DNA of 64,000 nt from a virus (taxonomy: Duplodnaviria; Heunggongvirae; Uroviricota; Caudoviricetes): IMG/VR virus record IMGVR_UViG_3300008113_000007, positions 1 through 64,000 of that record; one strand, written 5' to 3'. The notes beneath the pieces are model-generated. The model was not told the DNA's origin. It was given only the letters and a program-made list of their open reading frames with translations, and did not search any database. Below, piece by piece: positions 31,508 through 52,469 of this stretch (positions are counted from its first letter, which is position 1; every line of letters begins with the position of its first letter). The position numbers and the translations under genes are program-made.

Positions 31508-31510
31508 ATT

Positions 31511-31945
31511 TTATGCGTAGGTTTCTCCGAAGACGAGTACATACAATGCTGATGTGGAAAGTGCGGTGTTATACTGGTATTGTATAGACCATGTCTTAGG
31601 TAGGTTGAAGTACGGAACTCCGTTGGCGTCCCTCTGTTTTTGTAGCACAGCTGCGCCGACGACCGAGCCCATTATGTCCACTGCAGCAACTGAAGTTGTG
31701 TTACCCGAACTCAACGGTACACTTACTACGAATGCCTGGTAGTGAACGGTTCCGTCGTTCAGCCATATTGTTACGGTCTGTGCCGACGCAGCTGATGTGT
31801 TGACGATTGATATTCCGTATACCCTACGGTCGTATGTCGCGTCTGCGGTAAGTATTGTGTATCTCGTGTTGGTCGTCGAGTTCGCTGCGGATGCGGTCAA
31901 TCCTTGTAGAAACGGCGCACTTGTAAACGTTAGGTTGCTTGCCAT
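31511..31945 (-). CDS. small beta-rich structural protein, paralog of 31073..31507
   Basis: 'YDRRVYGISIVNTSAASAQTVTIWLNDGTVHYQAF'; same length (144 aa). Confidence 0.5.
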   Translation of the reverse strand: MASNLTFTSAPFLQGLTASAANSTTNTRYTILTADATYDRRVYGISIVNTSAASAQTVTIWLNDGTVHYQAFVVSVPLSSGNTTSVAAVDIMGSVVGAAVLQKQRDANGVPYFNLPKTWSIQYQYNTALSTSALYVLVFGETYA

Positions 31946-31988: not shown

Positions 31989-34900
31989 CTAAGTGTTGTT
32001 CGACATATATAGAAGTACCGTCTGTGTTATGAGGTTAGCTTCTACGAAGTTCGAGTTGTTTCCTGAGAACGTTCCGGTGAGTTCCATCGAGCCCTGTACG
32101 TGTAGTGTAGTTGCTGGTGATGCGGTTCCGATACCTACGTTTCCTGTCGAGTGTACTATGAAAGGTGTCGCGTCTGGATTGGCACTGTCTTCTACGACGA
32201 GTGCGTTTCCTGTTCCTGTCTGCGTTATCCTTACGAGATCTGTAGAGGACGCGCTTGAGACTACAAGGCCTGTCAGTGTGAGTGCACTTTGCCAGTTCGC
32301 GCTACCTATGTTGTCCTGTGAGACCAGGACTTTGTTCGTTCCTTCTGTTCCGTCTATTAGCCTGACGCTGTACTTCGTCTGGAATGAAGTGGTCTGCACG
32401 TTGAATATGCCGCCTATGTAGGTACCGATACCGAACAAGTCGTCCGACGAGTTCGCTACTATTCCCGCAACCGTTCCGCCGCCTGCGTCGGAAAACGCGT
32501 TGGTCACTATTCCGTAAGTGTCACCGTCCGAAGACGCAAACGCCTGTATCGCGGACGTAGCCCCGAGTGCGTACAATCCAGCGAGCGGCCCGTATGTCTC
32601 AATTCCGTAACTCGTCGATACAGAGTATATCCTGGCAGAGAGGCCGTCGTTTGTAGTTCCGGTCTTTAATCTTCCGTCGGCCGTTATGATGAAAGGCGTC
32701 GTATCTGGATTCGATGAGTCTTCCACGACGAGCGAGCTTCCTGTTCCGGTCTGAGTTATCCTGAGCAAGTCTTGCGAAGAAGAGCCTGATGCTATAATCA
32801 GTGGTACGGTCGTTGTGTTCGCTGTTGCTCGAAGTGTGTTTCCGTCGAAAGTGAGGTTTGCCTCGCCGTTGAGTCCGGTCGTCGTTCCGGTGGATGTTAC
32901 TACCCGGTTGTCACCAAAGTTCGTCACTGTGGTACCACCTCCTGAACTGGCTTGCCATGTCGCAACCCCGTTCGCGTCCGAAGTTAGAACATATCCTGCC
33001 TGCTGTGTTCCGTCGACTATCCTTACTGCACCACTCGTCGTTGAGAAGACATGAAGTCCGGTCGAAGGCGATGCCGTTCCCACACCGACGTTTCCTGCCG
33101 CAGTTATTATGAAAGGCGTTACATCAGGGTTCGCACTATCCTCAACAACAAGCGCGTTGCCCGTTCCTGTCTGCGTTATCCTAACTACGTCGCCAGTACT
33201 TGATGCCGAAGCTATTATTGATGTAACATATATGTTGCTGCTCCAGTTAGTGTCCCCACTCGCGTTGACAGATGTGAGAATTTTGTTTGTGTCCTGCGAT
33301 CCGTCTTGTAGTCTTAGAGCATACGCATTCTCTCCGAATCCGTCGGCGTAGAAGCTTCCTGCGATGTATGTGTTTCCGTTACTAGGCGTGTCTGACGGGT
33401 AGGCACTGGCTTTAATTCCGAAGTATGTGCCTACTGAGTCTCCGTACGCCAATGCCTCTACACCTGCAGCTTGTGAGCCTGGTGTGTTTGTCCTTCCGTA
33501 CAGACCGACTTTGGTTGCCGAGTCTCCGAAGATTCCACCATTAGTGGCGAGAACGTACGCTTTGTAACCAAATGCAGATGGTGTTGATAAACCTATACCA
33601 ACATTTCCGGCGTTGTCTATCACGAACGGAGAAGAGTCTGGATTTGTTGCATCCTCGACGACGAAGGCGTTTCCGGTACCGGTCTGTGTTATCCTGAGTA
33701 AGTCCTGTGTCGACGAACCTGATGCAAGTATCAATGGTACAGTCGTGGTGTTTGCTGTCAAACGTAGCGTGTTTCCGTCGAATGTTAAGTTACTTTCTAC
33801 CGTTGCGTTTGGTGCTGAGCCGTTCAAAGTTATGACACCATTGTCGGTTGTCCCTGTAAGGCTTAGTAATCCCGATGTTCCGGACGAACCTGATGTTCCT
33901 GAACTTCCACTACTTCCCCTGGTACCTGAGGAACCGGAAGAACCTGATGTGCCCGAAGATCCGGAGTTACCAGACGAACCGGAAGATCCTGTGCTACCTG
34001 AAGTTCCTGATGACCCAGAAGAACCAGTGTTGCCAGATGATCCTGAAGATCCGGTTGAACCACTTGATCCAGAAGTTCCGGAAGACCCTGAGCTTCCACT
34101 ACTACCGGTAGAGCCCGACGAGCCACTTGTTCCCGAGCTACCAGATGAACCACTTTGTCCGGATACATTGAAACTGACAAAGCACAAATCATTGTTTGTG
34201 AAGTTGGCGTCTGCTATAACGTTACTTATAGTTATTGTCCACCATCCGGTGTTATCGGTCGTTGCACTAAATTCATATGTGTGAAACCAAGTTAAGTCAC
34301 TTTGCTTAGTTATCTTTATGAAGCCTCTTCTACTTGCAGATCCGTAGTTTGCAAGTGAACTGAAGAAGTTTTGTAAGTCGTTATTACCATTTCTATCAAA
34401 TCTATCTATGTAAAGTGCAGTGGCACTACCCATAGTTAGGTTGTTTAGTCTGAAGAAACCTGATCCCGGATCCGACGCGGTTATTGTTGTACTGTAAGTA
34501 TACTCAAAACTCGCAGAGTCTATACCGTTCACACCTGATGTTCCTGTAGAACCACTACTTCCTGTGGATCCAGAAGTTCCGGAAGAACCTCTCGTTCCAG
34601 AAGAACCTGATGATCCAGAAGTTCCTGAAGACCCTGAACTTCCTGTAGAACCGCTCGAACCTGAACTTCCGGTTGAGCCCGATGTGCCACTTGAACCACT
34701 GCTTCCTGTAGAACCGCTTGAACCGGTGCTACCTGATGTTCCTGATGTTCCAGAAGACCCAGAAGACCCTGAACTTCCAGTTGAACCAGATGACCCAGAA
34801 GACCCTGATGTTCCCGAAGACCCCGAACTTCCGGTTGAACCGCTTGAACCGGAACTTCCGGTTGAACCCGATGTACCACTCGAACCACTACTTCCTGTAG

Positions 34901-37900
34901 AACCGCTTGAACCTGTGCTACCCGATGTTCCTGATGACCCAGATGACCCAGAACTTCCCGTTGAACCGGAACTACCCGATGTTCCGGAAGAACCTCTCGT
35001 TCCCGAAGACCCCGATGAACCAGAGCTACCGGACGAACCTGTAGATCCTGCACTACCCGATGTTCCTGAAGATCCACTACTTCCTGTAGAGCCACTTGAC
35101 CCAGACGAACCTGATGTTCCGCTACTGCCGGACGAACCAGTAGATCCACTTGAACCAGACGAACCTGATGTTCCGCTACTGCCGGATGTACCAGTGGATC
35201 CACTTGAACCAGAAGACCCCGATGTTCCACTACTACCGGATGTACCAGTAGAACCACTGCTCCCTGAAGATCCAGAAGACCCCGATGATCCTCTTGTACC
35301 AGAAGATCCAGAAGACCCTGATGTTCCACTTGAACCAGACGAACCCGATGAACCAGAAGTTCCAGAACTTCCGGATGAACCGGAAGACCCTGATGTTCCG
35401 GAAGAACCGCTCGAGCCCGAAGAACCATTTCCACCGGAAGCACCATCTAAGTTCGTTGTCCAGGATGAAAATGTGCCTGCACCATTTATTTCTGTTACAC
35501 TCAGTACCAAATTACCGGTTGAATCTGAGTAAGAAATCACATCACCGTGAAAGTGATTTGCGTTGGTGTTGGCAACAATCAAATGTTGTGCTATCGAATA
35601 CTCCAATCCAATACTTGTCGTCAGAGAATAGGTGTTTCCTATTATGAGACTGGATAAATTGATAGTATCTGTCGAACTCCCTATGTATTGTGCTGATATT
35701 CCAGATGTACCCGAAGAACCAGATGTTCCGGCACTACCTGAAGAACCAGCAGAGCCACTTGAACCGCGAGTTCCTGATGATCCACTTGAACCCGAAGTTC
35801 CAGACGATCCTGTTGAACCTGAAGTTCCTGCTGAACCTGAAGAACCAGACGATCCTGTAGAACCAGATGTTCCTGCTGAACCTGATGACCCAGACGAACC
35901 TCTTGTTCCGGATGAACCTGAACTTCCTGACGTTCCCGAAGACCCGGAAGAACCAGAAGTTCCTGATGAACCTGATGACCCAGACGAACCAGAAGTTCCT
36001 GCTGAGCCTGAAGAACCAGACGACCCGGTTGAACCAGAAGAACCAGATGTTCCTGTTGACCCTGTTGACCCAGACGACCCTGTTGATCCAGACGATCCAG
36101 AAGTTCCTGCTGAGCCTGTTGACCCAGACGACCCGGTTGAACCAGAAGAACCAGATGTTCCTGTTGACCCTGTTGACCCAGACGACCCTGTTGAACCTGA
36201 TGACCCAGATGTTCCTGATGAACCTGAAGAACCAGACGACCCGGTTGAACCTGATGACCCAGACGACCCTGTTGAACCAGAAGAACCTGAAGTTCCTGAT
36301 GACCCTGTTGAACCTGATGACCCAGACGACCCTGTTGAACCAGAAGAACCAGATGTTCCTGATGACCCTGTTGAACCAGAAGAACCTGAAGTTCCTGATG
36401 ACCCTGTTGAACCAGAAGAACCTGAAGTTCCTGATGACCCAGATGACCCAGACGACCCAGATGACCCAGATGTTCCTGTTGAACCTGATGACCCAGACGA
36501 CCCTGAAGAACCGGACGTTCCGGACGAACCCGCAGACCCGGAAGTTCCAGTTGAACCGGAAGAACCAGATGTACCTGAAGACCCTGAAGAACCAGAAGTT
36601 CCGGATGAACCGGAAGACCCAGATGTTCCTGACGATCCTGTTGATCCTGAAGTTCCAGATGAACCGGACGATCCAGATGTTCCTGACGATCCGGAAGAAC
36701 CAGAAGTTCCTGTAGACCCGGAAGATCCTGTTGAACCTGATGACCCGGAAGACCCGGTTGAACCTGAAGAACCAGAAGTTCCTGCTGACCCAGAAGAACC
36801 AGACGACCCAGAAGTTCCTGACGACCCCGATAAGCTTAAATCACTTCTATATGCAATATAACCGCTACCATCTCTAACTAATATATCCGTCTCGGTTGTA
36901 CCGGATGGTATATTTGGTGCAAATAATGAATTTGCTGCCACCTCAAACATCACAGAACCACCGTCTAAGTTAATTGGTTGTATTCCCAACCCACTTTTGA
37001 ATTGAAAAACGGTATTTGATGTTTCTGAACCTATTACAAATTTATTGGAAGTTGAACTACCATCTGTACCAAACACCGTCGTATATTCTCCGGTTTTTGC
37101 TAAAGTAAATACTATATTTTTGGTATTTGAACCAGATGTGAAATGATATGCCGTTTGTGATGGGCTATTGCTAGCGTCAAAGTTTTCATTTACTGAAAAT
37201 CCATTATCACCTTGAGGAAAAAATTGTTGAGTCCCTATAGAAAAACTATCATTGGCAATTACACTACCATATAGATTTTGCGTTCCTGAAGATGTTCCAA
37301 AATTGGAAGAACCAATCATTGTTAACAAACTACCATCAAATGTTAGATTACCTTCAGCAACCGCGGCGTTTGTAGTTCCATCCGATGTCAATAATCTGTT
37401 ATCAGACGGATTTGAAATTGTGTCAAATCCTGTTCCACTAGTTCCTGAAGAACCTGCTGACCCAGACGATCCGGACGAACCAGAACTTCCTTCGGTCCCT
37501 GATGTTCCGGATGAGCCTGAACTACCAGAAGAGCCAGAGCTTCCTTCGGTTCCTGATGTCCCTGATGAACCTGAGCTACCGGCGGAGCCTGAAGTACCAG
37601 AAGAACCGGATGAACCTGTAGAACCGGAAGTTCCTGATGAACCTGTGCTACCAGAAGATCCTGATGTTCCTGCAGAACCAGAACTTCCTTCGGTCCCTGA
37701 TGTTCCTGCAGAACCAGAGCTTCCTGACGTACCCGATGAGCCAGAAGATCCTGATGTTCCTGATGAACCGTCGCCCCCTGTTGTACCGTCAAGATTTATT
37801 GTGAAATCCGGTCCGTTTGGACTACCGTAGACGTACTTCACTATCACGTACATATCACCGGTCGCGGGATTGTAACTCTGTATTATTCCTTCCAAATAGT

Positions 37901-38528
37901 TGTAGGCGTCCTCCGCCGCCACTATTGACTGCCCGACTGTGTACGCAAGGCCAGTGTCGAGTGACTCAAATAGTATTACGTCGTCAATGTTTGGAACCGA
38001 CATCGTGTGGACGGTTTCGGTCTTATATTTCTCCGATGTGCCGGACGTGCCTGAAGAACCGGATGTACCTGAAGATCCTGACGAACCACTCGAACCTCCT
38101 GTACCTGAAGATCCTGACGAACCACTCGAACCGCTTGAACCTCTTGTACCTGACGATCCGGAAGAACCAGAGCTTCCAGACGAACCTGATGTTCCGGAAG
38201 AACCGCCTTCCCCTGAAGAACCAGATGAACCAGTGGTTCCTGAAGAACCTGATGTTCCTATGCCTGATGTTCCTGAAGAGCCGATGCCTGATGTTCCTGA
38301 GGATCCAGCGACGCCTGTTCCTGATGTGCCTGAGCTGCCGGGAAGACCGGATGTGCCTGTTTGTCCTGAAGTTCCGGAAGAGCCTGGAACGTTACCGAGG
38401 CCTCCTGCGCTGCCTATGTTTAATACGTTTCCGAAACCGTCGTAATAGACGCCATTTATTATCTGTACTAGTCGGCCAAAGCCGTCGGTTGCCAGGTTTC
38501 GTATCTGGTATTTGGGGTTCCTCGACAA
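31989..38528 (-). CDS. giant fiber protein (2179 aa): N-terminal anchor motif, four long collagen-like (G-S/T-S/T)n segments alternating with globular knobs, and four C-terminal ~170-aa fiber-repeat modules
   Basis: Continuous minus-strand ORF with TTG start at 38528 and a late-like box at ~38551-38560; hundreds of Gly-X-Y triplets with X,Y = Ser/Thr/Ala; repeated 'TANTTTVPLI(I/L)ASGSSTQDLLRITQTGTGNA(F/L)VVED..NPD..PF(V/I)I...GNVGIG' modules. Confidence 0.8.
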   Translation of the reverse strand: MSRNPKYQIRNLATDGFGRLVQIINGVYYDGFGNVLNIGSAGGLGNVPGSSGTSGQTGTSGLPGSSGTSGTGVAGSSGTSGIGSSGTSGIGTSGSSGTTGSSGSSGEGGSSGTSGSSGSSGSSGSSGTRGSSGSSGSSGSSGTGGSSGSSGSSGTSGSSGTSGTSEKYKTETVHTMSVPNIDDVILFESLDTGLAYTVGQSIVAAEDAYNYLEGIIQSYNPATGDMYVIVKYVYGSPNGPDFTINLDGTTGGDGSSGTSGSSGSSGTSGSSGSAGTSGTEGSSGSAGTSGSSGSTGSSGTSGSTGSSGSSGTSGSAGSSGSSGTSGTEGSSGSSGSSGSSGTSGTEGSSGSSGSSGSAGSSGTSGTGFDTISNPSDNRLLTSDGTTNAAVAEGNLTFDGSLLTMIGSSNFGTSSGTQNLYGSVIANDSFSIGTQQFFPQGDNGFSVNENFDASNSPSQTAYHFTSGSNTKNIVFTLAKTGEYTTVFGTDGSSTSNKFVIGSETSNTVFQFKSGLGIQPINLDGGSVMFEVAANSLFAPNIPSGTTETDILVRDGSGYIAYRSDLSLSGSSGTSGSSGSSGSAGTSGSSGSTGSSGSSGSTGSSGSTGTSGSSGSSGTSGSSGSSGTSGSTGSSGTSGSSGSSGTSGSSGSSGTSGSSGSTGTSGSAGSSGTSGSSGSSGSSGSTGTSGSSGSSGSSGSSGTSGSSGSTGSSGTSGSSGSTGSSGTSGSSGSTGSSGSSGSTGSSGTSGSSGSTGSSGSSGSTGSSGSSGSSGTSGSSGSTGSSGSTGSTGTSGSSGSTGSSGSTGSAGTSGSSGSTGSSGSTGSTGTSGSSGSTGSSGSSGSAGTSGSSGSSGSSGTSGSSGSSGTSGSSGSSGTRGSSGSSGSAGTSGSTGSSGSSGSAGTSGSTGSSGTSGSSGSSGTRGSSGSAGSSGSAGTSGSSGTSGISAQYIGSSTDTINLSSLIIGNTYSLTTSIGLEYSIAQHLIVANTNANHFHGDVISYSDSTGNLVLSVTEINGAGTFSSWTTNLDGASGGNGSSGSSGSSGTSGSSGSSGSSGTSGSSGSSGSSGTSGSSGSSGTRGSSGSSGSSGSSGSTGTSGSSGTSGSSGSSGSTGTSGSSGTSGSSGSSGSTGSSGSSGTSGSSGSSGSTGSSGSSGTSGSAGSTGSSGSSGSSGSSGTRGSSGTSGSSGSTGSSGSSGSSGTSGSTGSSGSTGSSGSSGTSGSTGSSGSSGSTGSSGSSGTSGSSGSSGSTGSSGSSGSSGTSGTSGSTGSSGSTGSSGSSGTSGSTGSSGSSGSTGSSGSSGTSGSSGSSGTRGSSGTSGSTGSSGSTGTSGVNGIDSASFEYTYSTTITASDPGSGFFRLNNLTMGSATALYIDRFDRNGNNDLQNFFSSLANYGSASRRGFIKITKQSDLTWFHTYEFSATTDNTGWWTITISNVIADANFTNNDLCFVSFNVSGQSGSSGSSGTSGSSGSTGSSGSSGSSGTSGSSGSTGSSGSSGNTGSSGSSGTSGSTGSSGSSGNSGSSGTSGSSGSSGTRGSSGSSGTSGSSGTSGLLSLTGTTDNGVITLNGSAPNATVESNLTFDGNTLRLTANTTTVPLILASGSSTQDLLRITQTGTGNAFVVEDATNPDSSPFVIDNAGNVGIGLSTPSAFGYKAYVLATNGGIFGDSATKVGLYGRTNTPGSQAAGVEALAYGDSVGTYFGIKASAYPSDTPSNGNTYIAGSFYADGFGENAYALRLQDGSQDTNKILTSVNASGDTNWSSNIYVTSIIASASSTGDVVRITQTGTGNALVVEDSANPDVTPFIITAAGNVGVGTASPSTGLHVFSTTSGAVRIVDGTQQAGYVLTSDANGVATWQASSGGGTTVTNFGDNRVVTSTGTTTGLNGEANLTFDGNTLRATANTTTVPLIIASGSSSQDLLRITQTGTGSSLVVEDSSNPDTTPFIITADGRLKTGTTNDGLSARIYSVSTSYGIETYGPLAGLYALGATSAIQAFASSDGDTYGIVTNAFSDAGGGTVAGIVANSSDDLFGIGTYIGGIFNVQTTSFQTKYSVRLIDGTEGTNKVLVSQDNIGSANWQSALTLTGLVVSSASSTDLVRITQTGTGNALVVEDSANPDATPFIVHSTGNVGIGTASPATTLHVQGSMELTGTFSGNNSNFVEANLITQTVLLYMSNNT

Positions 38529-38550
38529 AAGATATACTCTTTTTTGAGGT

Positions 38551-38560
38551 TATATATTAA
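38551..38560 (-). promoter_or_regulatory. late-promoter-like box (minus strand reads TTAATATATA) upstream of the giant fiber gene
   Basis: Motif family; ~23 nt upstream of the start. Confidence 0.35.
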
Positions 38561-38585
38561 ATCCTGGATACTGCCAATGGATTAA

Positions 38586-39563
38586 CTAAAAGGATGTTAT
38601 TATAACGAGACCGTCTCCGCCTCTTCCACCTGCCCCCGATATCGTCGTAGTACCTGTTGTTTGATTGGCACCGCCACCACCGCCACCACCGCATCCGATG
38701 GCACCGTCTCCACCTTTCCCCGCTATTACGGTTCCTGATGCTCCAACTACTCCGCCGGTGGCCGCGCCTCCTGTGAAGACCAGTGGATTTCTGTTCGTGT
38801 AAGACTTGCCCGGCATCCGGAGAATGAATCCGTCGGGTGCGTTGCTTCCGGTGAAACTTCCCGCCGGGGCGTTGCCTGCTATGCCCGAGAGCGTCGGCAC
38901 AATGCCGCTTCCGGTTATCGAACCGCCGCTCGAAACTCCGGTACCCGCCGAGGTCCCGCCGCCTCCGGCGCCACCGCTGACTATCTTAGTAACGGACACG
39001 GAATCGCCTGCGGTCACGTTCGTGTTTCCGGAGCCGCCTGCCTGGCCCGCCACAGCGGAGATTTGTCCGAGGTTTACGAACGCGCCGGTTCCTGTCCAGA
39101 TTGTCTCACCGGATCCGACGTTACCATCCCCGGTTGTTCCTCCACCGCCCCCAGTGGCGGCGACGTTACCGCTCTGCATCACTATGTATGATGTCGAAGT
39201 TGTCGCGCCCAATGAAACGTAGCTGATCTCGCCACTTCCTCCGTTACCACCGTTTGCCTGTATCGATTGTGCTGACCCGCCAACACCGCCAGTTCCTACC
39301 TGCACATAAAGTACATCCGGTAGAAGGTCTGCCTGAAAGAAGCCGACCGAGACGGCACCGGAGCCACCTCCACCACCACCTGCTGTGGTGTTAGATGTAG
39401 ACCTCCTGCCACCTCCGCCACCGCCACCGGAGCCTATAACCACCATGTAGACGAACTTGCAGTTGTTCGGCTTTTTCCATATCTGCCAATTGACTACGTC
39501 TGCCGAGCCAAAGAAAACCTGGTTGTTCATCGAGTCGTCGGGAAGGTTGTTTATGTCAATCAT
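38586..39563 (-). CDS. Gly-rich fiber/spike-like protein, paralog 1 of 3
   Basis: Conserved N-terminus 'MIDINNLP...NWQIWKKPNNC', poly-Gly tracts, C-terminal 'GGRGGDGLVIITSF' (RTX-like GGxGxDxUx nonapeptide). Confidence 0.55.
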   Translation of the reverse strand: MIDINNLPDDSMNNQVFFGSADVVNWQIWKKPNNCKFVYMVVIGSGGGGGGGRRSTSNTTAGGGGGGSGAVSVGFFQADLLPDVLYVQVGTGGVGGSAQSIQANGGNGGSGEISYVSLGATTSTSYIVMQSGNVAATGGGGGTTGDGNVGSGETIWTGTGAFVNLGQISAVAGQAGGSGNTNVTAGDSVSVTKIVSGGAGGGGTSAGTGVSSGGSITGSGIVPTLSGIAGNAPAGSFTGSNAPDGFILRMPGKSYTNRNPLVFTGGAATGGVVGASGTVIAGKGGDGAIGCGGGGGGGANQTTGTTTISGAGGRGGDGLVIITSF

Positions 39564-39564
39564 A

Positions 39565-40509
39565 TCAAGTGCATGTTATTATTATCAGTCCGTCGCCACC
39601 CTTGCCACCAGGACCGCTACCGTTTGTTATTCCGGCGCCGCCACCACCGCCACCACCTCCGTAGATCGCGTTGCCTCCCGCGCCGCCTGAGCCGCCGTCA
39701 GAGGATCCGCCTCCGGAACCGCCCGCGAGGAAGAAATTCTCTACGGAGTAAGTCGTGGCGGCTGATGGATAGCAGGTCAAGAACGTGCTGCCCGCGCCGC
39801 CTGCCACAGTGCTTCCGGCAGAGCCGCCTGCAGGTCCGCCAACAATTGTCGGTACGCTGCCGGTTCCTGTTATGTTCGCACCTTTTATCGATGTTGCACC
39901 GTTTGTTCCCGCTCCGGCGCCGCCGCCTGTCAATATTCCCGATATTGTTATGTCAGTTGGAGCACCCGGTGCCGTTCCCGTGCCGCCTGCCTGGCCTGCC
40001 ACAGGAACTATCAGTCCGAATATCAGTATGTTTGTCGACGCCTCGACCCATATTGTTCCTGCCGCGCCTCCCGTCGATGGGTTCGTGGCACCCGCTATGC
40101 CACCTCTTGCGGCAACGCTTCCGCTTTGTATCAATATGTTTGCGGGTGTTGTGTTCGGTTGTATCGACACGTACGATATCGAGCCTGTCGCGCCGTTCGT
40201 GACCGATGTCCCTCCTGATCCTCCTGCGCCACCTGGCCCTACCTGAAGGTAAAGTGTGTCCGGTAGATAGGTCGCCGGAAAGAGTGCGTTCGTATACGCC
40301 GCTGATCCCCCGCCACCTCCGCCTCTCCTGGCAGTTCCAGTTCCTGCACCCTGGCCGCCGCCTCCACCGCCACCGCCACCGAGGCAGAATATGTGTACGA
40401 ACCTGCAGTTGTGTGGCTTGTTCCACACCTGCCAGTCAGAGGTCGAACCTCCTGAGGTGAATACCTGCCTGTTCGTGACGTTAGTTGGTAAATGGTTGTC
40501 GTATATCAT
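39565..40509 (-). CDS. Gly-rich fiber/spike-like protein, paralog 2 of 3
   Basis: 'MIYDNHLP...DWQVWNKPHNC', poly-Gly, C-terminal 'GGKGGDGLIIITCT'. Confidence 0.55.
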   Translation of the reverse strand: MIYDNHLPTNVTNRQVFTSGGSTSDWQVWNKPHNCRFVHIFCLGGGGGGGGGQGAGTGTARRGGGGGGSAAYTNALFPATYLPDTLYLQVGPGGAGGSGGTSVTNGATGSISYVSIQPNTTPANILIQSGSVAARGGIAGATNPSTGGAAGTIWVEASTNILIFGLIVPVAGQAGGTGTAPGAPTDITISGILTGGGAGAGTNGATSIKGANITGTGSVPTIVGGPAGGSAGSTVAGGAGSTFLTCYPSAATTYSVENFFLAGGSGGGSSDGGSGGAGGNAIYGGGGGGGGAGITNGSGPGGKGGDGLIIITCT

Positions 40510-40513
40510 GTCT

Positions 40514-41461
40514 CTAATGCCAGGTTATTATGACGAGCCCGTCGCCTCCTTTTCCGCCACCGCCAGCACCGCCGACGGAGTTACTCCCGTTACCTCCTCC
40601 GCCTCCGCCACAACCGTATCCGCCGTTTCCACCTCTTCCGCCCTGATTGGCGTTCGCCGCTCCACCGCCAGAACCTCCCGTGAAAAAGAGCGGTTTGTCC
40701 GGGTTTAGTAGCCAGACTACACCGTTTTGACCGTCACTTCCGACCGCACTGGAAGAGCCCGCCCTAGCACCGGCGGTGACGCTCGGTGCTGGTCCGTACG
40801 CAGCGACCGAACCGCCGTCGAAAAGCGTGGCCGTCGTGTTCTTTCCGCCTCCGCCCGCACCTGGTGATAGTATCAGAGTTGGTGTTATTGATGTACCTGC
40901 GGCACCTGCGTTACCGGCGCCACCAATCGCTCCCGCCGCACCGCTGACCATTGCCATCTGTGAGATTGTTGATGTGGCAAGAGTGAAAACAGTTCCGGCC
41001 GATCCTCCAGCACCTGACGCGGCACCGCCACCGGGTGCGGCGTTTCCACTTGCAAGTATAAGATCGGATATGAATGTCGAACCCGGTGTTGAACTTACAT
41101 AGGAAAGAGAACCGGCAGAGCCTGCCGCAGTAGAAAGCCCAGATGGTGCTCCGGCACCACCGTATCCTACCTGTATGTAGAGTGTGTCTGGAAGGTACAT
41201 CGCCGGGAACACAGCGTATGCGTAGGCAGAGCTACCGCCTCCTCCTCCACCTGCCACGTTGGCACCGCCTCCTCCGTTTAGCTGTGTCGGTCCTGAGCCA
41301 CCTCCGCCACCTCCACCGATTGCCATTATGGCGACGATACTTGCACTTTGTGGTTTTTGCCAGGTCTGCCATGCAGTACCACTGGCGTAGAATGCCTGAG
41401 TGAATTTCTCAGTCGGAAGGTTCTGTAGATCAATCATTGTTTCGCAGCCATTCTGGTACAA
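40514..41461 (-). CDS. Gly-rich fiber/spike-like protein, paralog 3 of 3
   Basis: 'MIDLQNLP...WQTWQKPQS', poly-Gly, C-terminal 'GGKGGDGLVIITWH'. Confidence 0.55.
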   Translation of the reverse strand: MYQNGCETMIDLQNLPTEKFTQAFYASGTAWQTWQKPQSASIVAIMAIGGGGGGGSGPTQLNGGGGANVAGGGGGGSSAYAYAVFPAMYLPDTLYIQVGYGGAGAPSGLSTAAGSAGSLSYVSSTPGSTFISDLILASGNAAPGGGAASGAGGSAGTVFTLATSTISQMAMVSGAAGAIGGAGNAGAAGTSITPTLILSPGAGGGGKNTTATLFDGGSVAAYGPAPSVTAGARAGSSSAVGSDGQNGVVWLLNPDKPLFFTGGSGGGAANANQGGRGGNGGYGCGGGGGGNGSNSVGGAGGGGKGGDGLVIITWH

Positions 41462-41654
41462 GTGCCTCCGATGCGTCTACCAGAATTGAGTTCGATACGT
41501 CAGTTTCTGAGATATCGATTGTGTCTCCGTTCGAATTGGCAAACCTCGTAAGCTCCTCATTTATATACTCTTTGTAAAATAGAGTTTCGACTTCCGCTGA
41601 CGTAAATGACCATAGTTCGTACCTAAGATAGTATTGCCTTATGTCATTTATCAT
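41430..41654 (-). CDS. small hypothetical protein
   Basis: ORF overlapping the end of the upstream paralog. Confidence 0.3.
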   Translation of the reverse strand: MINDIRQYYLRYELWSFTSAEVETLFYKEYINEELTRFANSNGDTIDISETDVSNSILVDASEALVPEWLRNND

Positions 41655-41660
41655 ACGTCC

Positions 41661-42077
41661 TTAGTATTTTCCTCCTATGACACTCACTGCATATCCAGCG
41701 GATGCGGTCACACCCAAAGTGACGAATAAGCGGTAACTCGGTGGTAGAGCAAAGTTAAGCGGTAACTCGGTCGTACTGAGCGCACTGGTCTCGGAGACTG
41801 TTGTCGCCGCCAGCGATACCTCGTCAAAAAGCACGTTGTTTGCGGCCGTGCCAGTACTCGAGCCGTTGTTTATCCATAGCCTCGCCACGGTGGCCTGATT
41901 TGTGCCGAGTGGCCTGAATCTGATCCTCTGAACGTATCCGCCGTTCGTAGAGTCTGCAACAAATACAGAATAGGTGATACCCGTCGTCAGGTCCTTTGTC
42001 GTGTTGGCGGCGGAAGCCGAAGCACCCGACCACTGAATGTCTCCTATTCTCGAAAAGATTGGTTGGTTGTTTGGCAT
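41661..42077 (-). CDS. small beta-rich structural protein, fifth member of the 'W(L/I)N(D/N)G' paralog family
   Basis: 'YVQRIRFRPLGTNQATVARLWINNGSSTG' aligns with 'DRRVYGISIVNTSAASAQTVTIWLNDGT'. Confidence 0.45.
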   Translation of the reverse strand: MPNNQPIFSRIGDIQWSGASASAANTTKDLTTGITYSVFVADSTNGGYVQRIRFRPLGTNQATVARLWINNGSSTGTAANNVLFDEVSLAATTVSETSALSTTELPLNFALPPSYRLFVTLGVTASAGYAVSVIGGKY

Positions 42078-42113
42078 TGTTGACGTTTTATTTTATATAT
42101 CTTTTACTTCTCT

Positions 42114-45100
42114 TTATGTCAGGTAATTGAAGTTGGTCATTACGTAAGTCATTCCGTAGTTGAAAAGAGCAGGCGATGTCGAGTCGCTGTAGTTCACGTA
42201 CCCCGAAGTGTCTCTGGTTAGTATCTGAGTGTTTGTTGTCGAGTAAGTTGGCGTGTTGCTTATCCTCAGCGAAGTTACGCTTATGTCGCTCTTCCAGTTT
42301 GCCTTCCCGTCTGATGAAACGGATGTCAGTAGCTTGTCCACACCTTCCGTACCATCGACGAGTCTAATTGAGTAGTTAGTTCCGTTCGCCGAGCCAGCAA
42401 CAAAGTATGCACCGATATATGTTCCACTACCAGTATCGTTCTCAATCGCGAAACCTTGTACACCAATCTGTGTTCCTGTATCCGATTGTGCTATACCGTA
42501 TACACCTATATCTCCTTGTCCTTTAACTCCAGCGTTGGCACCGGTACCCACACCTACGATTCCGGTCCCGTTGGTTGAGTAACCGTATATCGCCGGGTTT
42601 GTCGAGTCTTGTACGTATAGACGACCTGCAGCGGGATTTGCACCTATACCCACGCTTCCAATCGAGTTGATTACGAACATTGTTCCGTCTGGATTTGCAC
42701 TATCTTCGACTACGAAGGCGTTTCCGGTTCCGGTCTGCGTTATTCTTACCAGGTCCTGCGTAGAGGATCCGGAAGCTATGATGAGGGGTACGGTAGTTGT
42801 GTTCGCGTTCAATTTCAACGTGTTCTGGAAAATCTCCATCACATTGCTCGGCGTTGTGCCGCTTGGTGCTATGTATCCAAACTCTATTTTGTTGTCGTTT
42901 GTTGAAGTGCCGACGCTTTGTGAGACCAGCCAGCTACCCATTCCGACTTCATCTTTTATGAACGTTGATCCGTTGTACTGTATGTTTGACGTCCATGCGT
43001 GGTTGTTGTTCTTCCACGAGAAGAAGCTAGTGTCTGTGTCGCCGGAGTTTATGCTGGATATGAGTAGCCTAGCCGCTCTACTGGAATTCAATGCGACGTA
43101 AAGGTCACCGTAAATATTTGTTGTGTATGGTAAGGTTATGCTCGATCCTGTGTCAATAATCGAAGAAGTTCCGATTGTCGTGGTCGATGTGAACTTTACA
43201 AGTTTGTTAGTTTCACCGGTTATAGATAGTGAGGTTCCAGAAGTTCCTGAACTACCACTTGATCCAGAGGTCCCGGATGAACCACTTTCACCAGAGGAAC
43301 CGCTGGAACCAGAAGAACCTGAGCTACCAGACGTACCGGAAGATCCAGAGCCGGCACCTCCTGTTTGGTCTACCCATTGCGTGTTGTAGTCGGTTGCATC
43401 TATTTTTGCTAATACTTGACCACTTGTTCCGCCGGCAGGTACTCCAAATCCAGATGTTCCTGAAGAACCTGTGCTTCCTGAAGATCCAGATGTACCGGCT
43501 GAACCAGAGGATCCCGTCGAACCTGAACTACCGGAACTTCCGGCTGAACCGCTAGTACCTGAACTACCGGATGAACCTGATGTTCCAGACGAGCCAGTCT
43601 CACCGGAACTACCGGATGAACCAGCACTACCACTGCTACCACTAAAACCTGAGGATCCTGAAGTTCCGGATGAACCTGAGAATCCAGAGGATCCGGTCTC
43701 GCCGGAACTACCGGATGATCCTGTAGAGCCAGAAGTTCCGGATGAACCAGTTGAACCTGAGGATCCTGATGTTCCTGACGATCCGGTCTCACCAGAGCTT
43801 CCTGAACTACCGGACGATCCGGTGGACCCTGAACTACCTGAAGATCCTGAGCTGCCTGACGTACCAGACGAGCCAGACTCACCAGAGCTTCCAGAACTAC
43901 CGGACGATCCGGTCTCACCAGAGCTTCCGGAACTACCGGACGATCCGGTAGAACCCGAAGTTCCAGATGATCCGGTTTCACCTGAACTACCTGACGAGCC
44001 GGTGGATCCTGAACTACCTGAAGATCCTGAGCTGCCTGACGTACCAGACGAGCCTGTCGATCCAGAGGTTCCCGAGGAACCGGAGAGACCTGTTTCGCCG
44101 GAGCTTCCAGAGGATCCAGTGGACCCCGAGGTTCCCGAAGAACCTGAGCTACCTGACGTACCAGACGAGCCTGTTTCGCCGGAGCTTCCGGAACTACCCG
44201 AAGAACCTGTCGATCCAGAAGTTCCTGTTGAGCCAGAACTACCAGAAGATCCGGTCGAACCAGAACTACCGGAAGAACCTGACGTACCGGAAGAACCGCT
44301 TTCACCAGAGCTTCCAGAGCTACCGGAAGAACCTGTACTACCGGAAGAACCTGTACTACCGGAAGAACCTGTACTACCGGAAGAACCACTTGTACCAGAT
44401 GAACCATTTTCACCAGAACTACCTGAAGATCCTGACGTACCGGAAGAGCCGCTTTCGCCCGATGAACCGCTCGAACCTGTAGAGCCTGAACTACCAGATG
44501 TTCCTGCCGAACCGGAAGAGCCGGTCGAGCCTGAACTACCAGAGGAACCAGAAGTTCCTGAGGATCCATCTTGGCCCGAGCTTCCCGAAGTTCCTGTAGA
44601 GCCTGAGCTTCCGGATGAACCGGTGCTTCCGGATGAGCCTGTGCTACCACTCGTACCGGACGAACCATTCTCTCCGCTGCTACCGGATGAACCTGTGCTA
44701 CCGGATGAACCGGAAGTTCCTGTTGAACCTGAACTTCCTGAAGATCCAGTCGAGCCAGATGAACCCGAGCTTCCGCTTGTACCAGAAGAACCATTCTCTC
44801 CACTACTACCTGATGAACCCGAGCTTCCGGTGCTACCTGATGAACCCGAGCTTCCGGTGCTACCTGAAGACCCTGTGCTACCGGATGAGCCTGTGCTACC
44901 GCTAGTGCCAGACGAACCATTCTCTCCGCTGCTACCAGATGAACCTGTGCTTCCGGATGAACCAGAAGTTCCTGTTGAACCTGAACTTCCTGAAGAGCCA
45001 GTCGAGCCAGAAGAGCCAGAGGATCCACTGGTACCCGAAGAGCCGTCCTGCCCGCTGCTTCCTGAGGAGCCTGTGCTACCGGCCGTACCTGAGCTTCCTG

Positions 45101-47015
45101 TTAAGCCAGAGCTACCAGAGCTTCCAGAAGATCCAGTGCTACCAGATGAACCGGTGCTTCCTGATGTGCCCGAAGAGCCGTCCTGCCCGCTGCTACCAGA
45201 AGAGCCTGTGCTTCCGCTTGTGCCCGAGCTACCTGTGATACCCGAGCTACCGGAACTACCAGTAGAGCCGCTAGTTCCAGTAGAACCAGAAGAGCCGGAG
45301 GATCCTCTCGTTCCCGAAGATCCACTAGAACCGCTAGAACCATTTGTTCCGTTCTTCGCAAACGAGAGGACTACGGTGTCTGCCAAATCTAAGTTGAAGC
45401 TTCCTGTAGTCAACAATATGTTTACGTCCAACCTGACAAATCCTATTTCGTCAGTGGCGTTGGTTATCACGAAGTTCGCGAAGTTCGTTCCGCCGTTTGC
45501 CGCACTCTTTATCATTAAAGTTCCACTGTCCCAAGAGTTGAGCAGCACCTCGTTGTCGACAGAGTTCGCGTCAATGTCGTTTATGAGTACCTCGTAGACT
45601 GTGAGTACCGTCGAACTCCTTCTGAACTTTATGTTTCCGGTGCCAGGATCGACGTTTGTTCCTGATATTATGTAGTTGTAGAGAAGACCGCTTGCCTCTC
45701 CCTGTGCACCAGACGTGCCGGAAGTGCCGGAACTACCAGTGGATCCCGAAGAACCAGAGGAACCTCTCGTACCGGAAGAGCCTGACGAGCCGGAACTTCC
45801 TGATGTTCCGGTCGAACCTGAAGAGCCGGATGAACCTGTTGAACCCGATGAACCTGTTGAACCCGAAGATCCTGTCGATCCTGAGCTACCTGTTGAACCA
45901 GAGCTGCCCGAGGTTCCTGACGAACCGTTTTGGCCGCTTGATCCGGATGAGCCAGTAGAACCTGAGGATCCAGAACTGCCGGACGTTCCGGAAGAGCCAG
46001 TCGAACCCGAGCTACCGGTCGAACCCGAGCTACCGGTCGAACCGGAAGTTCCTGAAGAACCATCCTGACCACTCGACCCTGAGCTGCCGCTCGAACCCGT
46101 GCTACCTGAAGTTCCGCTGCTACCTGAAGAACCACTGGAACCCGAAATTCCACTGGAACCTGATGTGCCCGAAGTTCCTGATAGATTTGCCGCCAATGTA
46201 GTAACTATGTTCGAAAGCGTGGAGTCTCTCATCTCTATCGAGAACGCCGTGTTGAATCCGGTTGTCCTGACGTAGACGGATACTCTGATCCTTGAAGAAA
46301 CCGATGAAAGGACGTACGAAGGAACGTATTTCGTGTAGATGTAGTTCGATTGGACGTTCGTTATGTTCGTCGCGGACGATGAGTTTCCAGATGCTATCGT
46401 GCCGATTAACGTAGTACCATCGGATGCGACCTCGTCTATTATTATCCAGTAGCCCAAAGTGCCCGTGCCCGAAGTCCTTTGTGCGAACAAATTGTTCACC
46501 CAAAGACCCGGAATTATGGTTGTTGTGAGTAAGTCCACTGCCGGTGTCACAAAGCTGGCTATCAGCACGTTGTCGTCTGTCGGTGATAAGTTGCTTATCG
46601 TTATCTTTGACTGGGTCGACGTGTTCGGTGTCAACGAAAGATTGTCGTTTATCGGTGTAAGCGGAAGTGACTGAGTGTTGTTTTCGCCGTCGTAGTAATA
46701 AACCAAACCACCCGAGATACCGTTTATACCGTCGATGCCAGAAGTCCCTGATGATCCTGAAGAGCCAGATGTGCCCGAGGAGCCGCTAGTTCCTGAAGTT
46801 CCTGATGAACCTGAAGAGCCGGAACTTCCGGTAGAGCCCGAAGAGCCTGTAGTCCCTGAAGTGCCGGAAGAGCCGCTAGTTCCGGAAGACCCTGCCGGTC
46901 CAATTTCGCTTAGGCCGATTGTCATCCAGGCATAGCCGTCCCATTTCCAGGACTCGCCTGTTGAGAGTGTGTATACTTGGCCTATCGACGGCGACGTTGG
47001 AAAGCTAATCGGCAT
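42114..47015 (-). CDS. giant fiber protein (1633 aa) with collagen-like (G-S/T-S/T)n segments, globular inserts, and one C-terminal fiber-repeat module
   Basis: Continuous ORF; long 'GSSGTSGSTGSSG...' tracts; C-terminal 'NANTTTVPLIIASGSSTQDLVRITQTGTGNAFVVEDSANPDGTMFVINSIGSVGIG' homologous to the modules in the 2179-aa protein. Confidence 0.8.
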   Translation of the reverse strand: MPISFPTSPSIGQVYTLSTGESWKWDGYAWMTIGLSEIGPAGSSGTSGSSGTSGTTGSSGSTGSSGSSGSSGTSGTSGSSGTSGSSGSSGTSGIDGINGISGGLVYYYDGENNTQSLPLTPINDNLSLTPNTSTQSKITISNLSPTDDNVLIASFVTPAVDLLTTTIIPGLWVNNLFAQRTSGTGTLGYWIIIDEVASDGTTLIGTIASGNSSSATNITNVQSNYIYTKYVPSYVLSSVSSRIRVSVYVRTTGFNTAFSIEMRDSTLSNIVTTLAANLSGTSGTSGSSGISGSSGSSGSSGTSGSTGSSGSSGSSGQDGSSGTSGSTGSSGSTGSSGSTGSSGTSGSSGSSGSTGSSGSSGQNGSSGTSGSSGSTGSSGSTGSSGSTGSSGSTGSSGSSGSTGTSGSSGSSGSSGTRGSSGSSGSTGSSGTSGTSGAQGEASGLLYNYIISGTNVDPGTGNIKFRRSSTVLTVYEVLINDIDANSVDNEVLLNSWDSGTLMIKSAANGGTNFANFVITNATDEIGFVRLDVNILLTTGSFNLDLADTVVLSFAKNGTNGSSGSSGSSGTRGSSGSSGSTGTSGSTGSSGSSGITGSSGTSGSTGSSGSSGQDGSSGTSGSTGSSGSTGSSGSSGSSGLTGSSGTAGSTGSSGSSGQDGSSGTSGSSGSSGSTGSSGSSGSTGTSGSSGSTGSSGSSGENGSSGTSGSTGSSGSTGSSGSTGSSGSSGSTGSSGSSGSSGENGSSGTSGSSGSSGSTGSSGSSGSTGTSGSSGSTGSSGSSGENGSSGTSGSTGSSGSTGSSGSSGSTGTSGSSGQDGSSGTSGSSGSSGSTGSSGSAGTSGSSGSTGSSGSSGESGSSGTSGSSGSSGENGSSGTSGSSGSTGSSGSTGSSGSTGSSGSSGSSGESGSSGTSGSSGSSGSTGSSGSSGSTGTSGSTGSSGSSGSSGETGSSGTSGSSGSSGTSGSTGSSGSSGETGLSGSSGTSGSTGSSGTSGSSGSSGSSGSTGSSGSSGETGSSGTSGSTGSSGSSGSSGETGSSGSSGSSGESGSSGTSGSSGSSGSSGSTGSSGSSGSSGETGSSGTSGSSGSTGSSGTSGSTGSSGSSGETGSSGFSGSSGTSGSSGFSGSSGSAGSSGSSGETGSSGTSGSSGSSGTSGSAGSSGSSGSTGSSGSAGTSGSSGSTGSSGTSGFGVPAGGTSGQVLAKIDATDYNTQWVDQTGGAGSGSSGTSGSSGSSGSSGSSGESGSSGTSGSSGSSGTSGTSLSITGETNKLVKFTSTTTIGTSSIIDTGSSITLPYTTNIYGDLYVALNSSRAARLLISSINSGDTDTSFFSWKNNNHAWTSNIQYNGSTFIKDEVGMGSWLVSQSVGTSTNDNKIEFGYIAPSGTTPSNVMEIFQNTLKLNANTTTVPLIIASGSSTQDLVRITQTGTGNAFVVEDSANPDGTMFVINSIGSVGIGANPAAGRLYVQDSTNPAIYGYSTNGTGIVGVGTGANAGVKGQGDIGVYGIAQSDTGTQIGVQGFAIENDTGSGTYIGAYFVAGSANGTNYSIRLVDGTEGVDKLLTSVSSDGKANWKSDISVTSLRISNTPTYSTTNTQILTRDTSGYVNYSDSTSPALFNYGMTYVMTNFNYLT

Positions 47016-48233: not shown

Positions 48234-48236
48234 ATT

Positions 48237-52399: not shown

Positions 52400-52426
52400 A
52401 ACGATTATACTAAACCAAATGCCACT

Positions 52427-52440
52427 GGTTTTTATATATA
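52427..52440. promoter_or_regulatory. divergent TTTTATATATAATG box between the GT gene (minus) and the 52470 gene (plus)
   Basis: Palindromic TATATATA core can serve both strands. Confidence 0.35.
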
Positions 52441-52469
52441 ATGACGATTGATAAAAAACGAGAATCAAC

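Follow-up and report, generated by a model that had tools for sequence, protein, structure and literature searches.

Positions 31,989 to 47,015 of IMG/VR virus record IMGVR_UViG_3300008113_000007 (Caudoviricetes) raise the question of whether two very long reading frames, dominated by Gly-Ser/Thr-Ser/Thr triplets, encode real proteins and, if so, what kind of fiber these would form. The stretch analyzed comprised positions 1 to 64,000 of that record and is called the window throughout. An initial annotation had described two giant fibers of 2179 and 1633 amino acids (aa), with Ser/Thr collagen-type tracts alternating with globular knobs, and both open reading frames (ORFs) were present in full. 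The first, P1 (31989-38528, minus strand, 2179 aa), starts with TTG at 38528 and has an N-terminus that aligns with that of a neighboring fiber-like protein; the second, P2 (42114-47015, minus strand, 1633 aa), starts with ATG. From the sequence analysis set out below we consider it likely that P1 and P2 are genuine genes, part of the structural set of a huge T4-like (myovirus-type) phage, and that their products are homotrimeric, segmented, 'beads-on-a-string' virion fibers of roughly 300 nm, probably tail fibers.

Reading frames, tract layout and strand

Tracts were defined as runs of at least five Gly-X-Y (GXY) triplets. With intervening residues in square brackets, P1 has the layout [48]-(GXY)8-[18]-(GXY)25-[82]-(GXY)40-[200]-(GXY)126-[83]-(GXY)103-[119]-(GXY)33-[624] and P2 the layout [38]-(GXY)22-[175]-(GXY)54-[114]-(GXY)212-[32]-(GXY)13-[371], each as one unbroken ORF across all tracts and all globular modules. 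P1 thus contains 335 triplets (46% of the protein) and P2 301 (55%), Gly standing at every third residue through 636 triplets in 10 tracts, the longest of 212 uninterrupted triplets. Both proteins matched Pfam Collagen (PF01391; E = 6.6e-127 for P1, 5.2e-125 for P2), and no other ORF of the window contained a GXY run of more than four triplets.

Reverse-complemented GGN-TCN-TCN is free of stop codons, so long antisense ORFs exist within the tracts, and it was these that JGI automatic gene calling had reported (e.g. 43471-45597, plus strand, 708 aa, with a 'PEEPDD...' product). Spurious Pro-Glu/Asp-rich antisense products of up to 708 aa were likewise called instead of fiber genes in L001, L002 and L009. 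Antisense coding was rejected, as the plus-strand ORFs halt at the knobs whereas the minus-strand frame carries on through conserved modules, which have hundreds to thousands of homologs. Because automatic callers read the tracts on the wrong strand, full-length P1 and P2 were untraceable in the protein collections that were searched: P2 gave no exact match and P1 was present only as a 581-aa C-terminal call. The fiber class is probably under-counted through such wrong-strand calls and through assemblies that break inside tracts.

The N-termini are of two types, one common to P1 and a 263-aa neighbor, the other found in P2. The P1 type also occurs in P0046, P0070 and L074 (3-3449). Neither matched a characterized anchor domain in Pfam or PHROG, though both are common to other fibers of related phages.

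Composition and glycine phase of the tracts

The hundreds of G-S-S, G-T-S, G-S-T and G-S-A triplets claimed for the two ORFs were counted as 342, 117, 93 and 17 among the 636, GSS, GTS and GST together making up 87%. The 1272 X and Y residues comprise 924 Ser (73%), 244 Thr (19%), 36 charged residues (2.8%), 8 Gly and 2 Pro, that is, 92% Ser+Thr and 0.2% Pro. Reviews of prokaryotic and viral collagens name three stabilizers: Pro in position X, Thr in position Y, and charge pairs (PMC11923368, PMC8968730). Compositions of this known kind (Pro or hydroxyproline, Thr at Y with Pro at X, Lys/Arg-Glu/Asp pairs), which are typical of collagen and not strictly defining, were absent from the tracts, given their 2 Pro and 36 charged residues.

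At the DNA level the tracts are strongly diversified. Gly is encoded by all four of its codons and Ser by all six, the 636 nucleotide units comprise 229 distinct 9-mers, and adjacent blocks of 9-126 nucleotides (nt) in the 212-triplet tract of P2 are only 53-60% identical. The nucleotide-level near-repeats of the initial annotation proved weak: Tandem Repeats Finder (TRF) reported arrays of 61-90% matches, except for two very short 100% arrays of 1.9-2.4 copies, and the longest exact repeat in the 15 kb was only 71 nt, every other being at most 50 nt. A recent slippage array was rejected on this codon and 9-mer diversity. Glycine nevertheless occupies the first position in 636 of 636 triplets despite the DNA divergence, 27% of X/Y residues are other than Ser, and Gly is nearly excluded from X and Y; if Gly had varied at the X/Y rate, the probability of zero Gly changes would be ~1e-88. 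The strict periodicity therefore argues for selection on a triple helix and not for a composition-only linker.

In the 212-triplet tract (43443-45350, minus strand) the sole charged or polar non-hydroxyl residues come as GEN, GET, GES or GQD triplets, spaced by eye roughly every 14-21 triplets and in step with TRF periods of 126 and 252 nt. P1 uses GTR where P2 uses these triplets, which may be register marks.

Orthologs and related fibers

An ortholog of P1 (2446 aa; L074, 3461-10798) was found on an independent 249-kb IMG/VR contig, with the layout [61]-(GXY)17-[82]-(GXY)59-[200]-(GXY)101-[171]-(GXY)90-[119]-(GXY)74-[790] and X/Y fractions of 0.75 Ser and 0.18 Thr. Knob order is the same with one knob swapped, and identity is 97% in knob B, 92% in knob C, 79% in knob A1 and ~45% in the C-terminal region. 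Each tract has a different length, the totals being 341 and 335 triplets, and the Gly phase is kept in every tract of the ortholog. This comparison provides the strongest support for P1 as a real gene.

Phages in which the protein matching phrog_1645 is 47-52% identical to that of the window carry non-collagen fibers of ~700 aa at the position of P2; these share the P2 N-terminus and, by eye, knob D, and a GSS/GTS run of 48 triplets occurs in one relative. When 300 aa of the P2 tract served as the query, the proteins returned were 290-514 aa long. Of the 120 matches listed, 40 had at least 0.51 Ser in X/Y, were essentially Pro-free and contained 35-78 triplets, and the maximum among all matches listed was 81. 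Several of the most Ser-rich carry Peptidase_S74 (e.g. P0145, P0211, P0143, P0185 and P0134). Other viral contigs encode a giant collagen fiber of 2763 aa (493 triplets, among them uninterrupted runs of 216 and 219; Thr fraction 0.45) and further collagen fibers of 2246 and 1466 aa.

The architecture and the Ser-type composition are thus family traits of uncultured phages, combined at extreme length here and in the close relative. The tracts had been called unusual; this holds for their length and for the absence of known stabilizers, but not for their kind, Ser-dominated Pro-free tracts being common in metagenomic phage-like proteins and giant collagen fibers of 2246-2763 aa occurring in other viral contigs. 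The extreme feature is the combination of 212 uninterrupted triplets with hardly any Pro or charge.

C-terminal modules and probable trimerization

Both proteins end in the repeated modules noted in the initial annotation, four in P1 and one in P2. The motif ...RITQTGTGNAxVVED...GNVGIG was located at aa 1612, 1783, 1923 and 2100 of P1 (spacings of 171, 140 and 177 aa) and once in P2, at aa 1424. A first search with the module returned 619 homologs, and at least 548 loci were found in IMG/VR; homologs often carry or end in Peptidase_S74, a phage tail Collar domain or collagen. No Pfam domain was found at E up to 1 in the C-terminal regions of P1 and P2, and so no Peptidase_S74, which is present in some homologs only. 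Among 50,697 phage records, tblastn gave no match to the P2 C-terminus.

Against PDB, the C-terminal profile matched the Bdellovibrio MAT fiber Bd2133 (8OND, E = 3.9e-11), Bd3182 (8OJN) and 8OL4, with weak matches to 8OML (E = 0.033) and MYRF (E = 0.42). The matched segments include the recurring motif GNVGIGTxxPxxxLHV, which by analogy is taken to be the 'capping-loop' motif of MAT beta-helices. MAT fibers are intertwined trimeric beta-helices that have been compared to the T5 L-shaped tail fiber and the K1F endosialidase stalk (PMC10769870). The tracts thus stand next to modules whose profile matches solved trimeric beta-helix fibers (8OND, 8OJN, 8OL4), which is the best evidence that the P1 and P2 chains would trimerize.

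P1-type fibers from many metagenomes share a terminal ...Q(T/A)xLL(Y/F)(M/L)SNN(T/C/F/L)-stop although the rest differs (31992-32030, minus strand, in P1). The conserved SNN tail was seen in P0002, P0007, P0018, P0031, P0046 and P0070, and may be a docking or processing signal.

Globular knobs

The two mutually homologous globular modules of the initial annotation correspond to knobs A1 and A2 of P1 (aa 166-247 and 946-1028; 33% identity, E = 5e-14). It had overlooked a second knob type, knob C, which is common to P1 and P2: a profile built from outside sequences only matched P1 with E = 3e-47 and P2 with E = 7.5e-20. In a library of 1.84 billion proteins, 3887 cluster representatives matched P1 knob C at E <= 1e-3, typically with 2-8 matched stretches per protein. 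Among the best 150 matches, 62 had at least ten GXY triplets, and in these a knob of ~117 aa alternates with short GXY tracts, as in (GXY)19-[116]-(GXY)18-[119]-....

An AlphaFold2 (AF2) model of knob C from a 43-sequence alignment was a confident beta-sandwich (predicted local distance difference test, pLDDT, 90.7; predicted template modeling score, pTM, 0.86). Compared with BFVD, it aligned at template modeling scores of 0.75-0.90 to predicted viral proteins named 'collagen triple helix repeat' in uncultured Caudovirales, in the Synechococcus phages S-CAM7 and S-H34 and in Marseillevirus, Indivirus and Klosneuvirus. Knob C also occurs in an S-H34 protein that is labeled 'baseplate wedge tail fiber connector' in BFVD, and in gp22, a tail protein of the cultured Pelagibacter phage HTVC010P, where tblastn matched three places and two copies were evident in the translation. 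The family has neither a Pfam model nor a solved structural neighbor. Knob C looks like an uncatalogued 'collagen-interrupting' domain, found both in tailed phages and in giant viruses of eukaryotes. When each globular module was scanned against Pfam and PHROG, the only useful match was phrog_33012, a PHROG without known function, for the short P2 motif at aa 1192-1223.

Proposed fiber organization

The frames and Gly periodicity, the orthology and knob order, the C-terminal homology, the position in the structural block and the length differences between relatives are observed directly; from them we infer the triple helix, the trimer state of the knobs and attachment at the tail rather than at the neck or head, any glycosylation being hypothetical. 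A short N-terminal anchor would dock each fiber on the virion. It would be followed by collagen-type triple-helical rods, nearly all Gly-Ser/Thr-Ser/Thr, serving as thin spacers and broken up by compact knobs. Distal trimeric beta-helix modules of tail-fiber or tailspike-stalk type would carry or present the host-binding end, and the divergent distal modules, perhaps with conserved small proteins encoded downstream, would contact the host. At 0.286 nm per residue the rods of P1 would total ~287 nm and those of P2 ~258 nm, their lengths changing in in-frame 9-nt steps.

Collagen helices have been reported to nucleate at the C-terminus and to zip toward the N-terminus (PMC11923368). The knobs and the C-terminal beta-helix may act as trimerization and register clamps, the weak Pro-free helix folding segment by segment: internal knobs would re-nucleate the helix and lock its register in each segment, so that a weak Ser-type helix could be viable over ~290 and ~260 nm. 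Homology to tail fibers was found in two modules, knob C (HTVC010P gp22) and the beta-helix module (S74 and Collar proteins and 8OND), and in the knob-C family proteins examined the slot filled here by Ser-type tracts holds ordinary Thr/Pro collagen tracts.

Several points weigh against this organization. Presence in the virion and location of P1 and P2 are predicted from sequence only, and the AF2 monomer of the last P1 super-unit was poor (pLDDT 57, pTM 0.27). P1 crosses a junction (36086-36124) that lies outside both JGI contigs described below. The Persikov/Brodsky host-guest scale reportedly ranks Ser in the lower half at both X and Y. The tracts are without any known bacterial or viral collagen stabilizer (Pro at X, abundant Thr at Y, charge pairs). 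Because of this, and because (Gly-Pro-Thr)10 folds only in galactosylated form and is otherwise a random coil (PMC11923368), a (GSS)n helix without modification may be marginal.

It is conceivable, and put forward here as a tentative idea, that (Gly-Ser/Thr-Ser/Thr)n is a distinct, uncharacterized mode of triple helix that does without Pro and charge, in which hydroxyl and hydration networks or O-glycans, together with knob register clamps, would permit uninterrupted helices of ~180 nm. Total length would then be selected (335 vs 341 triplets) while single tracts drift by 9-nt steps.

Glycosyltransferase genes and possible glycosylation of the tracts

The initial annotation had connected the Ser/Thr-rich tracts with a glycosyltransferase (GT) cluster. 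The cluster is real, consisting of a 775-aa GT4 + GT9 fusion (50282-52609), a 260-aa GT2/Glyco_transf_7C protein (56628-57410), a Methyltransf_24 protein and a hexapeptide acyltransferase, and lies 3.3 kb from P2. Its GT2/Glyco_transf_7C gene (minus strand) forms a syntenic trio with p411 (54231-55466, plus strand) and p442 (52470-53798, plus strand). Across the IMG/VR loci retrieved by means of the GT gene, whose contigs measure 24-483 kb, the trio recurred at 52-65% identity, with p411 in 21 of 21 and p442 in 20 of 21. No GXY ORF was found within 10 kb of the GT2/7C orthologs in these 21 related huge-phage contigs, p411 and p442 being core genes unrelated to it. Homologs of the window GTs were also absent from the stored flanks (up to 10 kb) of L074, L060, L041, L045 and L087, a weak check because the upstream stretch stored for L074 and L060 consists mostly or wholly of fiber genes. 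A functional link is not supported by the adjacency in the window.

A collagen that depends on glycosylation for its stability is accordingly a possibility that we do not favor. Besides the proximity of the cluster, mycobacteriophages reportedly use GTs of their own for the O-glycosylation of virion proteins (Freeman et al. 2023). Glycosylated Thr is a documented stabilizer (PMC11923368 and references there), whereas the prophage collagen EPclA, produced recombinantly, is stable without sugar (PMC3368898), and GT clusters of large phages can target DNA or the host envelope instead. O-glycosylation of the tracts is possible on chemical grounds only.

Possible attachment at the neck or head

P1 and P2 could also be neck whiskers or head fibers, giving a 'hairy' capsid or collar (cf. 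T4 fibritin and giant-virus fibrils). The fiber block adjoins head genes, the closest cultured homologs of the phrog_1645 neighbor sit between neck and terminase genes in T4-like cyanophages, and the knob C fold recurs in the collagen-repeat proteins of Marseillevirus, Indivirus and Klosneuvirus. Knob C itself, the beta-helix module, the Gly_rich_2 neighbors and the 263-aa phrog_5073 neighbor point instead to tail-fiber relatives; this does not fix the attachment site, and we regard the neck or head as the less probable location.

Possible flexible tethers

If the tracts were disordered, flexible tethers between trimeric knobs, the fiber would be a floppy string of beads with a larger capture radius. 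Their composition, nearly devoid of Pro and charge, resembles that of engineered flexible Gly/Ser linkers, collagen peptides of the Thr type form random coils when unglycosylated (PMC11923368), and the AF2 monomer model was uninformative either way. Disorder, however, needs a composition and not a phase, yet Gly is in phase in 636 of 636 triplets and occupies only 8 of 1272 X/Y positions. The phase is intact in every tract of the ortholog, and elsewhere the knob family is flanked by conventional collagen tracts. Tethers are for these reasons unlikely, and triple-helical rods are preferred.

Assembly of the tracts

Pieces of the phage were found at 100% identity over the covered parts in JGI 3300042691, JGI 3300008107 and NCBI GCA_031545155.1. 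P2 is spanned whole by the 80-kb JGI contig Ga0415385_0001108, where it has 1639 aa through one extra GSSGTS (18 nt, 2 triplets, in-frame) at 46789-46805, the sole indel seen between assemblies; the NCBI metagenome contig ends at 46790, the same spot. P1 is split in the JGI assembly, with contigs ending at 36085 and 36125. These ends coincide with the edges of a 71-nt exact direct repeat in P1 tract 4 (36016-36086 and 36124-36194, 108 nt apart) and leave 39 nt covered by neither contig, which is the signature of an unresolved loop. On the 3' side of the break, ~3.9 kb of the 6.5-kb P1 coding sequence (32150-36085, from about aa 815 on) exactly matches a 20.5-kb contig. Short contigs of other data sets end at tract edges (38391, 38217 and 46790).

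The expectation that the tracts would be sites of length variation and assembly trouble was borne out by the 18-nt indel, by contig ends in three data sets and by ortholog tracts that all differ in length. Assembly collapse making the tracts too long was not supported, the evidence pointing to one tract that is possibly under-assembled: the 126-triplet tract of P1 could hold more 12-triplet units than the window shows, and fewer are unlikely. Despite the broken contigs, the uncovered 39 nt and the 18-nt difference, an artefact in which tracts were inflated or misjoined and the real genes are much shorter or separate is very improbable, given that the other exact repeats are at most 50 nt in strongly diverged tracts, that one contig spans P2 entirely and another matches ~3.9 kb of P1, that an independent ortholog has 341 triplets against 335, and that a loop at the 71-nt repeat would lengthen, not shorten, the true tract.

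Comparison with known collagens and fibers

Collagen in phage tail fibers has been known since 1998 (Smith et al. 1998, cited in PMC1079782), and Sullivan et al. described a cyanophage ORF that is 49% GXY, with X/Y 'often proline, serine, or threonine', in connection with T4-like cyanophage tail fibers (PMC1079782). EPclA, from a prophage of E. coli O157, is a stable collagen trimer flanked by trimerization domains (PMC3368898). P1 and P2 resemble such fibers (P-SSM2 orf028, EPclA) in having GXY tracts in fiber proteins beside trimerization domains, the tract being read as a rod-like spacer in both cases. Described phage collagens contain Pro and/or charge, whereas P1 and P2 have 92% Ser+Thr, 0.2% Pro and 2.8% charged X/Y residues over 301-335 triplets per chain. 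Described phage collagen tracts are reportedly far shorter, at tens to ~100 triplets. Literature searches returned no description of a Ser-dominated or Ser-rich phage collagen, nor of collagen in huge or jumbo phages. The novelty is the extreme length and the complete absence of known stabilizers, the phage collagen fiber as a kind being already known.

BclA of Bacillus anthracis is, like P1 and P2, a collagen rich in hydroxy amino acids, with a C-terminal trimeric globular domain (PMC11923368, PMC8968730). It has Pro at X and Thr at Y, whereas Ser dominates both positions in P1 and P2. The repeat number of BclA varies among strains and sets filament length. In a hydrothermal vent worm, whose cuticle collagen is of the type Gly-X-Thr(Gal) (Mann et al. 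1996), glycosylated Thr stabilizes the helix (PMC11923368, PMC8968730); that collagen is glycosylated, whereas glycosylation of P1 and P2 is hypothetical and GT synteny is unsupportive.

The beta-helix regions of MAT fibers Bd2133 and Bd3182 (8OND, 8OJN) have GNVGIGTxxPxxxLHV in common with the C-terminal modules of P1 and P2, in which neither an S74 chaperone nor a known tip domain was found; the MAT paper makes no mention of collagen (PMC10769870). Knob-C proteins (uncultured Caudovirales, S-CAM7, S-H34 and HTVC010P gp22) have the same ~117-aa knob alternating with GXY tracts. In the best 150 matches these tracts have 5-49 triplets, 0.07-0.45 Thr and up to 0.34 Pro, whereas P1 and P2 have one knob-C copy each and very long Ser-dominated tracts. 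Collagen-repeat proteins of Marseillevirus, Indivirus and Klosneuvirus have the knob C fold in common with P1 and P2, in viruses that differ in host domain and in type of particle. Mimivirus modifies its own collagen by hydroxylation and glycosylation (PMC8968730). The residue it modifies is hydroxylysine, whereas the candidate sites in P1 and P2 are Ser and Thr, any modification being hypothetical. Mimivirus collagen-like proteins such as L71 are tied to glycosylated surface fibrils and to virus-encoded glycosylation machinery.

If the tracts fold as triple helices, they would be a natural test of the limits of collagen without proline, hydroxyproline or salt bridges, and a source of very long, hydrophilic rods of genetically tunable length for biomaterials. 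A huge phage would then build ~300-nm fibers, about twice as long as the T4 long tail fiber (~145 nm), with swappable knobs and length-evolvable spacers. The interest lies mainly in collagen biophysics and in how huge phages make very long fibers.

Genome context and neighboring genes

The window belongs to the structural region of a huge phage, with genes for portal (9959-11701), prohead protease (14609-16786) and major capsid protein (16874-18589) and a weak tail-sheath-stabilizer-like match (phrog_227, E = 0.0006), so that P1 and P2 share the window with portal, protease, capsid and phrog_1645 genes. Stretches of ~900 bp are 74-78% identical to uncultured phages LR745206 and LR756502 (635 kb and 642 kb). 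The minus-strand fiber block runs in the order 263-aa protein, 404-aa phrog_1645 protein, P2, 138-aa protein, three Gly_rich_2 proteins, P1, two 144-aa proteins, 314-aa protein and 299-aa protein. Coordinates of the features are collected in Table 1.

Table 1. Features of the P1 and P2 locus, in window coordinates
Feature	Coordinates	Strand	Basis
P1, segmented collagen-like fiber gene	31989..38528	-	ORF, translation, 335 GXY, L074 ortholog
P1 putative N-terminal anchor, aa 1-48, motif GRLVQIINGVYYDGFGN	38385..38528	-	common to 263-aa fiber-like protein (48237-49028)
P1 knob A1, aa 166-247	37788..38033	-	similarity to A2; 79% identical in L074 ortholog
P1 knob B, aa 368-567, opening neck motif DNRLLTSDGT..NLTFDG	36828..37427	-	97% identical in L074 ortholog
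P1 tract 4, 126 triplets, ~8 copies of a 108-nt (12-triplet) unit	35694..36827	-	TRF
P1 knob A2, aa 946-1028	35445..35693	-	similarity to A1; L074 ortholog has an unrelated 171-aa knob in its place
P1 tract 5, 103 triplets	34518..35444	-	segmentation; 100% identity to JGI Ga0415385_0016154
P1 knob C, aa 1338-1456, predicted beta-sandwich of a large collagen-associated family	34161..34517	-	homologs, AF2, BFVD, outside-only profile
P1 C-terminal region, aa 1556-2179, two ~310-aa super-units, four RITQTGTGNALVVED...GNVGIG motifs, end ...LLYMSNNT	31989..33863	-	8OND/8OJN profile match; 619 homologs
P2, segmented collagen-like fiber gene	42114..47015	-	ORF, translation; spanned whole by JGI Ga0415385_0001108
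P2 putative N-terminal anchor, aa 1-38, MPISFPTSPSIGQVY..W.WDG.AW	46902..47015	-	common to non-collagen fibers L004 5294-7441 and L007 11221-13329
P2 tract 1, 22 triplets, holds the 18-nt indel site 46789-46805	46704..46901	-	assembly comparison
P2 knob D, aa 105-279	46179..46703	-	similar module by eye in L004/L007 fibers and P0046/P0070
P2 knob C', aa 442-555, knob C family	45351..45692	-	outside-only profile
P2 tract 3, 212 uninterrupted triplets, 636 aa	43443..45350	-	~180 nm if triple-helical
P2 short motif FGVPAGGTSGQVLAKIDATDYNTQW between tracts	43347..43442	-	phrog_33012, E = 1.7e-7
P2 C-terminal region, aa 1263-1633, one beta-helix module copy	42114..43229	-	46% identical to P1 module
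Upstream partners: 404-aa virion structural protein (phrog_1645) and 263-aa tail-fiber-like protein with P1-type N-terminus	47019..49028	-	PHROG
Cassette after P2: 138-aa protein and three Gly_rich_2 paralogs	38586..42077	-	Pfam PF21722; also in L025, L040
Cassette after P1: 144-aa, 144-aa, 314-aa (two copies fused) and 299-aa proteins	29321..31945	-	synteny

The Gly_rich_2 paralogs (38586-41461, minus strand) are of 314-325 aa, the Pfam match being weak for the 315-aa one, and are preceded by the 138-aa protein. The 314-aa Gly-rich paralog matched minor-tail and tail-fiber-assembly PHROGs. The order fiber, 138-aa protein, two or three Gly_rich_2 proteins recurs after P2-type fibers in L025 and L040, and by analogy with the Gly-rich gp38 of T2/S16-type phages the paralogs may be alternative tip adhesins. 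After P1-type fibers the order 144, 144, 314, 299 is kept in L074 and L060 and partially in L067 and L030; a distant copy of the ~144-aa family lies at 41661-42077 (minus strand). The ~144-aa family and the 299-aa protein had no Pfam or PHROG match and may be fiber accessory proteins or chaperones. PDB sequence searches with the 404-aa, 263-aa and Gly-rich neighbors gave nothing. The 3496-aa 'tail fiber protein' of cyanophage S-RIM32, encoded near a phrog_1645 homolog, was rejected as an analog, having no GXY tract, knob C or beta-helix module.

The 263-aa protein (48237-49028, minus strand) matched phrog_5073 (tail fiber). It contains a mini-collagen of four triplets that includes Pro, GPQGPTGPAGSS, and a stretch weakly resembling CBM_5_12. 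P0046 and P0070 are longer versions of this protein, in which the N-terminus is followed by Ser/Thr tracts, a knob D-like module and the beta-helix module.

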